Of a stretch of DNA of 64,000 nt, positions 4,971 to 12,664 are shown piece after piece. This DNA comes from Escherichia coli (lineage in GTDB: Bacteria > Pseudomonadota > Gammaproteobacteria > Enterobacterales > Enterobacteriaceae). Under the pieces are notes generated by a model, which saw only the letters and a list, made by a program, of their open reading frames with translations, was not told the DNA's origin and ran no database searches. The position numbers and the translations under genes are program-made. The stretch is taken from assembly GCF_003334405.1 (NCBI RefSeq), contig NZ_QOWM01000005.1. One strand, written 5' to 3'. Within the stretch, counting starts at the first letter, position 1. Each line of letters opens with the position of its first letter.

Positions 4971-5537
4971 ATGGGCAACACTAAGTTGGCTAATCCGGCA
5001 CCGCTGGGCCTGATGGGCTTCGGCATGACCACCATTCTGCTTAACCTGCACAACGTGGGTTATTTCGCTCTGGACGGTATTATTCTTGCCATGGGCATTT
5101 TCTACGGCGGCATCGCGCAAATTTTTGCTGGTCTGCTGGAGTACAAAAAAGGCAACACTTTCGGTTTAACCGCATTCACCTCTTACGGTTCTTTCTGGCT
5201 GACGCTGGTTGCGATTCTGCTGATGCCGAAACTGGGTCTGACCGATGCGCCAAATGCACAGTTCCTTGGTGTCTACCTGGGTCTGTGGGGCGTATTTACG
5301 CTGTTTATGTTCTTCGGCACGCTGAAAGGCGCACGCGTTCTGCAATTCGTTTTCTTTAGCCTGACCGTGCTGTTTGCCCTGCTGGCGATCGGTAACATTG
5401 CCGGTAACGCCGCAATCATCCACTTTGCCGGCTGGATTGGGCTGATCTGCGGTGCCAGCGCAATCTATCTGGCGATGGGTGAAGTACTGAACGAGCAGTT
5501 TGGTCGCACCGTTCTGCCGATTGGTGAATCCCACTAA
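4971..5537 (+). CDS. satP: Succinate-acetate/proton symporter, GPR1/FUN34/YaaH family, 188 aa
   Basis: Translation is a six-helix membrane protein with the NPAPLGL motif typical of this family. Confidence 0.92.
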   Translation: MGNTKLANPAPLGLMGFGMTTILLNLHNVGYFALDGIILAMGIFYGGIAQIFAGLLEYKKGNTFGLTAFTSYGSFWLTLVAILLMPKLGLTDAPNAQFLGVYLGLWGVFTLFMFFGTLKGARVLQFVFFSLTVLFALLAIGNIAGNAAIIHFAGWIGLICGASAIYLAMGEVLNEQFGRTVLPIGESH

Positions 5538-7505: not shown

Positions 7506-8936
7506 ATGCCAGATTTTTTCTCCTTTATTAACAGCGTCCTTTGGGGATCGGTAATGATTTACCTGCTCTTCGGCGCAGGTTGTTGGTTCACTTTTCGCAC
7601 CGGATTTGTGCAGTTTCGCTACATCCGCCAGTTTGGCAAAAGTCTTAAAAATAGCATTCATCCACAGCCAGGCGGTTTAACCTCATTTCAGTCATTGTGT
7701 ACCAGTCTTGCGGCGCGCGTGGGTAGCGGCAACCTGGCCGGCGTTGCGCTGGCAATTACCGCCGGTGGACCTGGAGCCGTCTTCTGGATGTGGGTTGCCG
7801 CGTTTATCGGCATGGCGACCTCGTTTGCCGAATGTTCCCTCGCACAGCTTTATAAAGAACGTGATGCCAATGGGCAGTTTCGTGGCGGACCGGCATGGTA
7901 TATGGCGCGCGGGCTGGGGATGCGCTGGATGGGCGTTCTGTTCGCCGTCTTTTTGCTCATCGCCTACGGCATAATTTTCAGCGGAATTCAGGCGAACGCC
8001 GTTGCGCGAGCCCTGAGTTTTTCTTTTGATTTTCCCCCGCTGGTGACAGGTATTATTCTCGCTGTCTTTGCTCTGCTGGCGATCACTCGCGGTCTTCATG
8101 GCGTCGCCCGGCTCATGCAGGGGTTTGTCCCGTTGATGGCGATAATCTGGGTACTGACCAGCCTGGTGATTTGCGTAATGAATATCGGGCAACTTCCCCA
8201 CGTCATTTGGTCTATTTTTGAGAGTGCTTTTGGCTGGCAGGAAGCGGCAGGCGGCGCGGCGGGATATACCTTAAGCCAGGCGATTACTAACGGTTTTCAG
8301 CGCAGTATGTTTTCCAATGAGGCGGGAATGGGGTCGACGCCAAACGCGGCAGCGGCAGCGGCGTCCTGGCCTCCGCATCCGGCAGCGCAAGGGATTGTCC
8401 AGATGATTGGCATTTTTATCGACACCCTGGTCATCTGTACGGCAAGCGCCATGCTGATATTACTGGCGGGTAACGGCACAACCTACATGCCGCTGGAAGG
8501 TATTCAGCTTATCCAGAAGGCGATGCGGGTGCTAATGGGTTCCTGGGGTGCTGAGTTTGTTACCCTCGTGGTTATTCTGTTTGCCTTCAGCTCCATCGTT
8601 GCCAACTACATTTACGCCGAAAACAATCTCTTCTTTTTACGCCTGAACAACCCTAAAGCGATCTGGTGTTTGCGGATCTGCACCTTCGCAACGGTCATCG
8701 GCGGCACCTTGCTAAGTCTTCCGCTGATGTGGCAACTGGCAGATATCATAATGGCCTGCATGGCTATTACCAATTTGACCGCCATTTTACTGCTCTCGCC
8801 TGTGGTTCATACCATTGCCAGTGATTATCTACGCCAGCGTAAACTCGGCGTGCGCCCGGTGTTTGATCCGTTGCGTTATCCGGATATCGGCCGCCAGCTT
8901 TCTCCGGACGCGTGGGATGATGTTTCGCAGGAGTAA
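7506..8936 (+). CDS. yaaJ: Alanine/glycine:cation symporter (AGCS family), 476 aa
   Basis: Translation is a multi-pass membrane protein with AGCS-family character; position between talB and yaaA. Confidence 0.9.
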   Translation: MPDFFSFINSVLWGSVMIYLLFGAGCWFTFRTGFVQFRYIRQFGKSLKNSIHPQPGGLTSFQSLCTSLAARVGSGNLAGVALAITAGGPGAVFWMWVAAFIGMATSFAECSLAQLYKERDANGQFRGGPAWYMARGLGMRWMGVLFAVFLLIAYGIIFSGIQANAVARALSFSFDFPPLVTGIILAVFALLAITRGLHGVARLMQGFVPLMAIIWVLTSLVICVMNIGQLPHVIWSIFESAFGWQEAAGGAAGYTLSQAITNGFQRSMFSNEAGMGSTPNAAAAAASWPPHPAAQGIVQMIGIFIDTLVICTASAMLILLAGNGTTYMPLEGIQLIQKAMRVLMGSWGAEFVTLVVILFAFSSIVANYIYAENNLFFLRLNNPKAIWCLRICTFATVIGGTLLSLPLMWQLADIIMACMAITNLTAILLLSPVVHTIASDYLRQRKLGVRPVFDPLRYPDIGRQLSPDAWDDVSQE

Positions 8937-9005: not shown

Positions 9006-9782
9006 ATGCTGATTCTTATTTCACCTGCGAAAACGCTTGATTACCAAAGCCCGTTGACCACCACGCGCTATACGCTGCCGGAGCTGTTAGACAATTCCCA
9101 GCAGTTGATCCATGAAGCGCGGAAACTGACGCCTCCGCAGATTAGCACGCTGATGCGCATCAGCGACAAACTGGCGGGTATCAACGCCGCTCGCTTTCAT
9201 GACTGGCAGCCAGATTTCACGCCGGAGAATGCCCGCCAGGCGATTCTGGCGTTTAAAGGTGATGTCTACACCGGCTTGCAGGCCGAAACCTTCAGCGAAG
9301 ACGATTTCGATTTTGCCCAACAGCATTTGCGAATGCTTTCCGGCTTGTATGGCGTACTGCGCCCGCTCGATTTAATGCAGCCTTATCGTCTGGAAATGGG
9401 GATCCGTCTTGAGAATGCCCGAGGGAAAGATCTGTATCAATTCTGGGGAGATATCATCACCAACAAGCTGAACGAGGCGCTCGCAGCACAAGGCGATAAT
9501 GTGGTGATTAATCTGGCGTCAGATGAGTATTTTAAATCGGTGAAGCCGAAGAAATTGAATGCCGAGATTATCAAGCCGGTGTTCCTCGATGAGAAGAACG
9601 GCAAATTTAAGATAATCAGCTTCTACGCTAAGAAAGCACGCGGTCTGATGAGTCGTTTTATTATTGAAAATCGGCTGACCAAACCAGAGCAACTGACTGG
9701 TTTTAATAGCGAAGGTTACTTCTTTGATGAAGCTTCCTCCAGCAATGGCGAACTGGTGTTTAAACGCTACGAGCAGCGTTAA
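9006..9782 (+). CDS. yaaA: Peroxide stress resistance protein YaaA (UPF0246/DUF328), 258 aa
   Basis: Translation begins [19 protein letters not shown]...; recognised family and position. Confidence 0.92.
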
Positions 9783-9794
9783 GTTTGCAGTCAA

Positions 9795-9915
9795 TGCCGG
9801 ATGCGGCGTGAACGCCTTATCCGGCCTACAAAAGCATGCAGATTCAATATATTGCAGAATTCACGTAGGCCTGATAAGACGCGCCAGCGTCGCATCAGGC
9901 GCTGAATGCCGGATT
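9795..9915. repeat. REP/BIME palindromic units (gccggatgcggcgtgaacgccttatccggcctac type)
   Basis: REP consensus present in both orientations in the yaaA-yaaX gap. Confidence 0.85.
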
Positions 9916-9934
9916 GTTACCCGGCATTTGTCAT

Positions 9935-10231
9935 TTAGCGGTGATGTTTGCCTGGACCATGACCGCCGTGATGATCATGATGAGCTTTCTTATGGTGACG
10001 CGGCGGTGGCGGCGGTCCGTGTGGGTGCCAGCGATTGCCTCGCCATTCATAATGTTGTTTCCACCAGCCGTGGTCGCGCCAGTGACCGCCATCCCAGTAA
10101 TAACCGCGATTATCACGATCGCCTATCTGTAATTTTACTGACGGGACTAACGTAATTTCCGCAGCCTGCGCTGCCATGGGAGCGACCAGAACCAGGGAAA
10201 GTGCGAGTACGATAGATTGCATCTTTTTCAC
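9935..10231 (-). CDS. yaaX: DUF2502 protein with signal peptide and His/Pro/Gly-rich C-terminal tail, 98 aa
   Basis: ORF track translation; position downstream of thrC. Confidence 0.85.
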
Positions 10232-10387
10232 AGGTTACTCCTTTTATCATTGCCCGTTATGGGTCGATATCCGGAGATTACGCGATGAGAACGGCGGTTG
10301 TTATTCTCCGCAATCCTAATCTCTAAGTTACCGCATTTATTGAGAATTTCTCCTTTTTCCCTGTCGTTTCTCTCCATATTTTCTTCA

Positions 10388-10422
10388 CAAAAAAGCCGGG
10401 CTGCATAAAAGCAAACCCGGCC
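10388..10422 (-). terminator. thr operon rho-independent terminator (gccggg...cccggc stem then T-run on minus strand)
   Basis: Hairpin immediately downstream of the thrC stop, read directly. Confidence 0.55.
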
Positions 10423-10444
10423 TGATTGAGATAATGAATAGATG

Positions 10445-11731
10445 TTACTGATGATTCATCATCAATTTACGCAACGCAGCAAAATCGGCGGGCAGATTAT
10501 GTGAAAGCAAGGGTAAATCAGCACGTTCTGCCAGCTCTTTTGGCAGATCCAACGTTTCACCGAGAATCGCTTCCACGCTCTCTTTAAATTTCGCCGGATG
10601 CGCGGTGCCGAGGAACAAGCCATATTCGCCTGGATTCAACTGGTCACGCAGCGCACGATACGCTACGGCAGCGTGCGGCTCCGAGGTGTAGCCCAGTTCT
10701 TTTAACTCACGCATTGTCTGTTGCGTGGTTTCATCATCCACGGCTGCATAACCCAGCTCTTTCAGTTGCCAGATTTTGCGGCGGAACAACTCTTCCACAC
10801 GCGGCCAGTTGTTCGGCTGACTCACGTCCATCGCGTTGGATAACGTCGCCTGAGTCGCTTTGGGGGACCACTGACCGTCGTGCAGGAAACGTGGCACGGT
10901 ATCGTTCACGTTGGTCGCAGCAATAAAACGTTTCACCGGCAGACCGAGTGACTTCGCCAGCAGACCCGCCGTCAAATCGCCGAAGTTTCCGCTTGGCACC
11001 GAGACAACCAGCTGGTTGCGCGCCTCCTGCGGCAGCTGCGCAACAGCTTCAAAGTAGTAGCAAATCTGCGCCAGCAAACGGCTGATGTTAATCGAGTTAG
11101 CCGAGTTTAACCCCAGCGCCACTTTCAGTTCTTCATCATCAAACGCCTGCTTCACCAGCGTCTGACAGGCATCGAAATCGCCGTCGATGGCAACAGTTTC
11201 GATATTGCCGCCCAATGTACAGAACAGTTTTTCTTGCAGTGGACTGATTTTGCCTCGTGGATAGAGGATAACCACTTTCACATTCGGTAAACCGTAGAAA
11301 GCATGAGCCACTGCCGCTCCGGTATCACCGGAGGTCGCGGTCAGAATGGTCACTGGCTTATCACCCGCAATATGGGTCAGCATTTGTGCCATAAAGCGAC
11401 CGCCGAAATCTTTAAATGCCAGCGTTGGCCCGTGGAACAATTCCAGACAACCGACATCGCTTTCAACATTGGCGACCGGAGCCGAGAAGGCAAACGCCGC
11501 GCGCACGCGCTCTTCCAGGATTTCCTGTGGGATTTCATCACCAATAAACGCCGAGAGGATCTTCGCACTGCGGGTGACAAAATCCAGCTTCAGCATCTCA
11601 TCAATTTCAGTCAGGCTGAATTCCGGCAGGTCATGCGGAAAAAACAGCCCCTGATTTTTGCCCAACCCCTGGGTTACGGCTTGCGCAAAGCTGACCTGCT
11701 CGTTGTGATCTTTCAGATTGTAGAGTTTCAT
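10445..11731 (-). CDS. thrC: Threonine synthase, 428 aa
   Basis: Translation begins MKLYNLKDHNEQVSFAQAV...; PLP-dependent fold; follows thrB in the thr operon. Confidence 0.97.
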   Translation of the reverse strand: MKLYNLKDHNEQVSFAQAVTQGLGKNQGLFFPHDLPEFSLTEIDEMLKLDFVTRSAKILSAFIGDEIPQEILEERVRAAFAFSAPVANVESDVGCLELFHGPTLAFKDFGGRFMAQMLTHIAGDKPVTILTATSGDTGAAVAHAFYGLPNVKVVILYPRGKISPLQEKLFCTLGGNIETVAIDGDFDACQTLVKQAFDDEELKVALGLNSANSINISRLLAQICYYFEAVAQLPQEARNQLVVSVPSGNFGDLTAGLLAKSLGLPVKRFIAATNVNDTVPRFLHDGQWSPKATQATLSNAMDVSQPNNWPRVEELFRRKIWQLKELGYAAVDDETTQQTMRELKELGYTSEPHAAVAYRALRDQLNPGEYGLFLGTAHPAKFKESVEAILGETLDLPKELAERADLPLLSHNLPADFAALRKLMMNHQ

Positions 11732-12664
11732 TTAGTTTTCCAGTACTCGTGCGCCCGCCGTATCCAGCCGGCAAATATGAACAAAACCTTCCTGATTTTG
11801 CAGGTAGTTCTTACCCAACCAGTCGGCAACGCGCTGGGCGGTATCCGGCTTGTCACACAGAGCGAACAAGGTCGGGCCGGAGCCGGAGATACCGCTCGCT
11901 ACCGCGCCGATTTCCGCGACCGCCTGCCGCGCCTGCCGGAAGCCTGGCAGTAATCGTTCACGGTAGGGTTCAGCGATAACATCTTTCATCAGCTTCGCGG
12001 CAAGCTCAGGCTGACGGGAATAGCAGGCGTGAATGAAGCCTGCCAGATGTCGCCCGTGCGCAATGCAATCCTGGCGGCGATACTGCGCCGGTAAAATAGC
12101 CCGGGCTTCTGCCGTCGAGACTTTAATCCCCGGATACGCCAGCACCCACAGCCACTCATCAAACCCAGGCACTTGCTGGCTGATGATGTCGTTTTCTTCG
12201 ATCATCAACTGCATACCACCTAGAAAACACGGTGCCACGTTGTCGTAATGAATGCTGCCGGAGATACGTCCTTCCAGCTCGCCCATCAAAGCCAGCAAAC
12301 GAGTGTCATTAAGCGGCTTGCCGCAGTGTTCATTCATCGCCATCAGCGCCGCGACCACCGAACAGGCGCTGGAGCCTAAGCCCGAACCGATCGGCATATT
12401 CTTTTCCAGAGTCATCGCCACTGGAATTTGCTTGCCAAGCTCCTGGCAAAAACGCTCCCAGCACTGATAAACGATATTTTCCCGTGGTTCTGACGGCAGC
12501 TTATCGGCAAAGCGCCCGAGGTTGTTGAGACTGAATATCTCTGCCGCCTCAACCGTAACTACATCTCCGAGCAATGCACCATCAACGGGTGTCACCGCCG
12601 CCCCGAGCACATCAAACCCGACGCTCATATTGGCACTGGAAGCCGGGGCATAAACTTTAACCAT
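11732..12664 (-). CDS. thrB: Homoserine kinase, 310 aa
   Basis: Translation begins [21 protein letters not shown]...; GHMP kinase motif; between thrA and thrC. Confidence 0.97.

Follow-up and report, generated by a model that had tools for sequence, protein, structure and literature searches.

This 64,000-nucleotide stretch of Escherichia coli DNA (the window) contains the thr-operon end of the chromosome, read in reverse. On the minus strand, thrB (11732-12664) and thrC (10445-11731) are followed by yaaX, and on the plus strand yaaA (9006-9782) is convergent with yaaX, with yaaJ (7506-8936) beyond it. The yaaX coding sequence (9935-10231, minus strand) comprises 98 codons, beginning with GTG, and a TAA stop at 9935-9937, as judged from the open reading frame (ORF) list, its translation, RefSeq and Pfam. 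Many complete E. coli genomes match the ORF and its flanks at 100% identity, and in them RefSeq labels the gene 'yaaX: DUF2502 domain-containing protein'; its coordinates in E. coli K-12 are 5234-5530. Pfam PF10697 (DUF2502) matches residues 25-96 with an E-value of 1.6e-13 (51.1 bits; model positions 1-89 of 90). An NCBIfam scan of YaaX gave no named family, only sub-threshold matches (Phr, FomA, Spy), all of which fall on the signal peptide.

The first-pass annotation had described a 98-residue protein with a His/Pro/Gly-rich tail and no assigned function at this position. The translation reproduces the protein that it quoted exactly. RefSeq and Pfam give DUF2502 or unknown function, and the literature that we found, in which yaaX appears in a handful of gene lists, assigns no function either. 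That yaaX is not a gene is ruled out by its cross-genus conservation, synteny, conserved ribosome-binding site and published ribosome-pause data. The overlapping ORFs at 9914-10132 (plus strand), 9931-10116 (minus strand) and 9724-10155 (plus strand) were rejected as genes; they read yaaX or its flank in other frames. yaaX is a known, annotated gene, and the feature is real and was correctly described.

A hairpin followed by a T-run (GGCCGGG...CCCGGC then TTTTTT; 10383-10425, minus strand) was identified from the sequence as the terminator of the thr operon. It separates yaaX from thrC; therefore, yaaX needs its own promoter. We aligned the thrC-yaaX spacer from seven loci of six genera, and a hairpin is also found in the Citrobacter and Enterobacter rows. 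A 54-bp block (GAAATTCTCAATAAATGCGG....TTAGAGATTAGGATTGCGGAGAATAACAAC; 10297-10350, minus strand) is nearly invariant in Escherichia, Citrobacter, a Salmonella-labelled record, Enterobacter, Kosakonia and Buttiauxella, while the spacer around it varies; it is presumed to be a promoter or a regulator-binding region. A second conserved block (CGTAATCTCC....ATCGACCCATAACGGGCAA; 10250-10282, minus strand) follows the first, ahead of the ribosome-binding site, and may represent a -10 region or a 5' UTR. The ribosome-binding site, AAGGAGT (10237-10243, minus strand), is invariant in the seven sequences. It is located 6 nt upstream of the GTG and supports that start, and an ATG occupies the same alignment column in other genera. 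Comparison of the spacers thus gives good evidence that yaaX has a conserved regulatory region. The RcsB box has the consensus TNRGAN4TCYNA, and heterodimers of RcsB with its partners use other sites. A search for this consensus with at most one mismatch found no match between 10232 and 10444. The strongly conserved upstream block contains TTAGGATT, which is distinct from the RcsB box consensus. A scan for sigma-70 promoters and terminators revealed none that was convincing for yaaX, the matches being inside the coding sequence or on the wrong strand.

The gap between the convergent stops of yaaX and yaaA (9783-9934, no strand assigned) holds a short hairpin and a pair of REP/BIME palindromes, as indicated by Rfam and RNA folding. 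Rfam naRNA4 gave sub-threshold matches at 9761-9826 and 9868-9926, and ES036 (CssrF) matched at 9830-9872 just above its gathering score. The folded spacer RNA has a predicted energy of -67 kcal/mol (z=-6.2). This spacer is strongly variable between E. coli alleles (93 gap columns). The REP/BIME region is likely to serve as a 3' end or stabiliser for the transcripts of both genes.

The protein can be divided into three parts. Residues 1-23 (10163-10231, minus strand) form a predicted Sec signal peptide, read from the sequence and from the homologue pattern, with a basic KK, a hydrophobic core and AQA followed by Ala (residues 21-24). The pattern ..VAPxAxQA then (A/S)EITL is kept in 61 homologues, from which we infer Sec export with predicted cleavage after AQA. 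Residues 24-68 (45 residues; 10028-10162, minus strand) form a core rich in Trp, Arg, Asp and Gly, delimited by conserved columns and an AlphaFold2 model. The mean column identity of this DUF2502 core is 84% over 40 non-identical cores, with 16 invariant columns, including five Trp, and 13 nearly invariant ones. Its motif is IGDRD..G.YWDGG.WRD..WW..HYEWR.NRW, and six Trp in 44 residues represent a significant enrichment (P=1.9e-5). AlphaFold2, run with a 61-sequence alignment, predicted short strands and one helix with pLDDT values of 84-92 for residues 31-70, and no solved structure similar to the predicted core was found among those compared with it. Hydrophilins are defined by a Gly content above 6% and a mean hydrophilicity above 1. 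Mature YaaX (approximately 9 kDa, GRAVY -1.78, Gly 14.7%, His 19%, calculated pI of approximately 10) lies within these thresholds, which are purely compositional and silent on function.

The third part is the His/Pro/Gly-rich low-complexity tail (residues 69-98; 9938-10027, minus strand), which was delimited by composition and the AlphaFold2 model and is predicted to be disordered (pLDDT 50-64). Its 30 residues include 11 His, 7 Pro, 5 Gly, 3 Lys and 2 Arg. Against the background His content of 2.3% in the 49 long ORFs of the 64-kb stretch, the probability of at least 11 His in 30 residues is 3.5e-11, and the richest 30-residue window among those ORFs has no more than 6 His. The tail contains four HH, two HxH and three HxxH motifs, and YaaX tails in general carry HH, HxH, HxxH and HD, all classical metal ligands, at high density. 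Origin from a tandem DNA repeat was considered and dropped, as TRF found no such repeat behind the tail at a score of at least 30. A run of five Pro (residues 73-77; 10001-10015, minus strand), a ribosome-pausing motif recognised from the sequence, is located between the core and the His cluster; its occurrence is largely limited to Escherichia and a few further lineages. Many database entries named YaaX are frameshifted at or near this proline run (about 10001-10020, CCG/CCA codons) and continue into the frame of the 61-residue ORF at 9931-10116 on the minus strand. In-frame variants with six Pro also occur.

A protein search over 5.8 billion sequences returned 158 matches, all of them DUF2502. 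After removal of obvious frameshift products and fragments, 89 cluster representatives were retained as clean orthologues. A position between thrC and yaaA, convergent with yaaA, is shared by yaaX in this stretch and its homologues at six other loci from five further genera, within the order thrABC-DUF2502-yaaA-yaaJ-talB. Because the thrC-DUF2502-yaaA synteny is kept in six genera, the homologues at these loci are true positional orthologues. All of the 89 clusters have a tail, with lengths of 23-49 residues (median 30) and His contents of 14-45% (median 31%). The sequence of the tail is much less conserved: in Citrobacter, Enterobacter, Kosakonia, Buttiauxella and the Salmonella-labelled record, its identity to the E. 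coli tail is 44-50% with 5-11 gap columns, compared with 77-86% for the core and 89-93% for ThrC. The residues accompanying His also differ, being Pro, Gly and Lys in Escherichia (fixed charge +4) and Asp and Arg elsewhere (about -2), and the common sequence is limited to a loose C-terminal ...PGP..KHH end. In the first-pass annotation, a tail poorly conserved among orthologues was held to count against metal binding. This expectation separated into two parts, since length and His richness are conserved in every cluster but the sequence is not, either between genera or between two E. coli alleles. The density of His and the length of the tail are kept while sequence, charge and neighbouring residues turn over, which argues for selection on composition. 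The pattern is the one expected if His density itself is selected; it favours a role in binding metals or protons and argues against a purely neutral appendage.

The two tail alleles of E. coli (9938-10027 in the window and 1705-1797 in locus L004) differ at 30 of 93 nucleotides (32%), whereas the difference is about 2% in their flanks, which comprise thrC, the upstream spacer, the core of yaaX and yaaA. The gapped alignment of the alleles adds compensating two-codon indels. The second allele, which encodes ...HPYGPPPSPRHNKHNDHRGDHRPGLDKHHR, is found in strain SE15 and is similar to the E. marmotae tail (NDHRGDHR...PGPDRHHR). Among 5423 genomes compared with the tail of this stretch, 4030 are at least 90% identical to it and 1392 are at 60-80%, with a single genome in between. 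Synonymous differences between the alleles are also raised, a hint that selection alone is not the cause and that the segment is old or imported, and the hypervariability within the species could reflect weak constraint. In the E. marmotae-type proteins (P0034, P0050), the tails are longer and a unit of four residues is reiterated (NDHR/GDHR/NDHG/GEHR), suggesting that tails may grow by short repeat expansion in some lineages.

More distant relatives were collected with a core-only profile, which found 107 proteins among 1.84 billion cluster representatives (clusters at 50% identity). They include forms with two core modules and a YpeC-type lineage, and an NCBIfam scan of ten of the distant DUF2502 relatives matched no family. 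Clean tails were available for 48 of them. At least 15% His is present in the last 25 residues of 28, a ...HCPPGQAKKGxC end is present in nine, and 11 are neither His-rich nor Cys-containing. The end (H)CPPGQAKKG(N/R)C takes the place of the His-rich end in P0138, P0143, P0177, P0186, P0197, P0205, P0206, P0210 and P0211, and also in P0095 and P0105; it is possibly a disulfide or metal loop. These tails were suspected of belonging to another, RcnB-like Pfam family, but Pfam gave only DUF2502 in two such proteins. YaaX has its signal peptide and Trp core in common with the YpeC lineage. However, YaaX has one module and lies between thrC and yaaA, whereas YpeC-type genes lie beside mntH and may have two modules or other tail types. 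In the E. coli paralogue YpeC, the tail is mostly Arg, Gly and Trp and ends in no more than a short GHGH(R)H run. The YpeC-type genes (loci L010-L013; 5001-5402, 5001-5309) directly adjoin, in convergent orientation, the gene for the Nramp divalent-metal transporter (mntH), within a conserved arrangement of ipdC-like, aldo-keto reductase, DUF2502, mntH and nupC genes. This adjacency is a weak and possibly coincidental link to metals. The two paralogs also differ in their regulation, YpeC being a target of MarA/SoxS (PMC5684230) and YaaX a member of the Rcs regulon.

The assignment of yaaX to the Rcs regulon comes from published transcriptomes. Overproduction of RcsB raised yaaX 1.9-fold and placed it in a list of the RcsB regulon (PMC2731931). 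Colicin M induced it with a log2 value of 4.12, and it was grouped there with the Rcs genes (PMC3599342). A LolCDE inhibitor raised it 8-12-fold, with the annotation 'RpoS stress induced' (PMC5105897), and the promoter of the Serratia homologue is in use as an Rcs reporter (PMC8470065). yaaX is thus known from published work as an Rcs envelope-stress regulon gene, a point absent from the first-pass annotation. YmgD, YmgG, OsmB, Bdm, YaiY, Ivy and Spy are co-induced with yaaX by colicin M, the LolCDE inhibitor and RcsB overexpression; however, their sequences are unrelated to YaaX, and none of them is noted for a His-rich tail. In LB and under silver, all four cusS gain-of-function mutants show differential expression of yaaX together with zraP and the cus genes, the direction not being given (PMC10920338). 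These lists are its only expression link to metals, and a weak one. A proline-related ribosome pause in yaaX was detected by ribosome profiling and by a nascent-peptide method, according to a review (PMC13410324); therefore, the gene is translated. The five consecutive Pro and the reported pause place YaaX under a polyproline definition of at least three consecutive Pro with an observed ribosome pause.

The best-supported reading of the tail is metal binding. With 11 His in 30 residues, it would almost certainly bind Ni or Zn in vitro. That its physiological role is multi-site chelation of divalent transition metals with modest affinity is a more tentative proposal, to which we give a little less than an even chance. 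According to this proposal, YaaX would be a Sec-exported periplasmic DUF2502 protein, transcribed from its own promoter and made during active Rcs (and sigma-S) envelope-stress responses. The compact, conserved Trp-rich core would probably provide a specific interaction with a partner. In the disordered tail of approximately 30 residues, the selected property would be the density of histidine, not the sequence, and the tail would chelate Zn, Ni and Cu reversibly in the periplasm, giving a stress protein an arm that buffers or captures metal. The polyproline segment found in Escherichia may keep the tail away from the core.

Several lines of evidence lead to the chelation proposal. It is favoured because His density is conserved, because HH, HxH, HxxH and HD motifs are present with frequent His-Asp pairing in other genera, and because an end containing His and Cys stands in for the His tail in some relatives. 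To our knowledge, the characterised bacterial His-rich segments are nearly all metal-binding (ZraP, ZinT, the ZnuA loop, the SlyD tail and Hpn), which also supports the proposal. The genomic context speaks against a metal role: the neighbours of yaaX are thrC and yaaA, not metal-homeostasis genes, and no feature of the genome was found that ties yaaX specifically to the homeostasis of Ni, Zn or Cu. In the literature that we found, neither control of yaaX by Zur, ZntR, CueR, NikR or RcnR nor an experiment on metal binding or phenotype of YaaX or another DUF2502 protein is reported. The composition of the distant tails also counts against it, since 11 of the 48 lack both a His-rich and a Cys-containing end and the YpeC tail is mostly Arg, Gly and Trp, and so could the hypervariability within E. 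coli.

In ZinT (N-terminus), ZnuA (loop), ZrgA, Zcp, SlyD and Hpn, His-dense disordered segments with HH, HxH and HD motifs are attached to a folded domain. Those segments feed a high-affinity metal site or a transporter, and the genes are metal-regulated (Zur, NikR). Unlike the ZinT/ZnuA-type proteins, YaaX has a core without a recognised metal site, is not known to belong to a metal regulon and has no transporter neighbour. ZraP, of the Spy/CpxP group, resembles YaaX in being small, exported (as predicted for YaaX), stress-induced and periplasmic, and the two genes occur together in the cusS-mutant lists. ZraP has zinc-binding regions and chaperone activity, according to a passage in PMC3852070 that cites Appia-Ayme 2012. 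However, ZraP is under the control of ZraSR, not of Rcs. No homology to ZraP, Spy or CpxP was found in sequence or predicted fold, Pfam giving only DUF2502, and the NCBIfam Spy match to YaaX (E=0.11) covers the signal peptide only. Because these tests of sequence and fold similarity found none, YaaX does not belong to the ZraP or ZinT/ZnuA families. Its mode of action is plausibly that of ZraP or of the His-rich arms with which ZinT and ZnuA capture metal.

Histidine titrates near periplasmic pH, and a charge-switch role would fit the same data equally well. The tail could be a pH-switched polycation, serving as a proton sensor or electrostatic tether that is weakly charged near neutral pH and becomes strongly cationic when the periplasm is acidified. 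The acidified tail might then bind anionic LPS, colanic acid or peptidoglycan-associated anions, or alter the interaction of the core with a partner. From pH 8 to pH 5, the E. coli tail goes from a calculated charge of +3 to one of +14, the Enterobacter tail from -3 to +5 and the Buttiauxella tail from -3 to +8, but the Kosakonia tail reaches only +1 at pH 5. Variable fixed charges with conserved His content alone would be expected if titratability is selected. Rcs induces colanic acid and responds to damage of the outer membrane and peptidoglycan, and the Trp/Arg-rich core may resemble proteins that bind at glycan or membrane interfaces. However, no acid induction of yaaX is reported in the literature that we found, and ypeC changes only 1.3-fold on an acid shift. 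A pH switch is compatible with metal binding and does not exclude it. As the principal role of the tail, we regard it as unlikely, though a serious contender.

A tail without a specific ligand is rather improbable in our estimation. It would be a fast-evolving, hydrophilin-like solubility or spacer element, with His arising from mutational or codon bias and the core performing the whole function. The poor sequence conservation with many indels, the sharp divergence of the two E. coli alleles relative to their flanks, the extreme hydrophilicity of the mature protein (Gly 15%), the connection of yaaX expression to RpoS and osmotic-type stress, and the distant tails with neither His richness nor Cys are all consistent with such a spacer. 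However, His is a rare residue (2.3% in the background ORFs), and in every clean orthologue it is held within the range given above despite the turnover of neighbouring residues and length. The YpeC-type lineage, at a separate location, shows His richness again, slippage cannot maintain it for want of a tandem DNA repeat, and no clean orthologue has lost the tail or shortened it below 23 residues. The idea that the Pro run makes YaaX synthesis dependent on EF-P, with the tail region acting mainly as a translation-rate or regulatory element, agrees with PPPPP at residues 73-77 and the pause seen by two methods, but it is very improbable: the run is missing in most orthologues (Enterobacter, Kosakonia, Buttiauxella, the Salmonella-labelled record and Leclercia) and so leaves the conservation of a His-rich tail unexplained, its position is 3' of both signal peptide and core, and there is no downstream gene for it to regulate because yaaA is convergent.

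Metal chelation by the tail can also be extended to the whole family, although we consider this extension doubtful and speculative. DUF2502 proteins (YaaX and YpeC) may constitute an unrecognised class of stress-induced periplasmic metal buffers or chaperones, in which a novel Trp-rich mini-fold carries an interchangeable metal-ligand tail, either His-rich or of the ...HCPPGQAKKGxC type. On this view, E. coli lineages would be diversifying their tails, perhaps in response to host nutritional immunity or envelope attack.

yaaX is the fifth gene on the E. coli K-12 map, and it is among the more strongly induced genes without a known role under envelope damage by colicin M or Lol inhibition. The comparative data presented here strengthen the idea that its tail binds metal, a result that would not surprise a specialist. 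If metal buffering or pH-switched binding by DUF2502 proteins is true, it would add a little to the picture of the Rcs response and of the uncharacterised gene set of E. coli.
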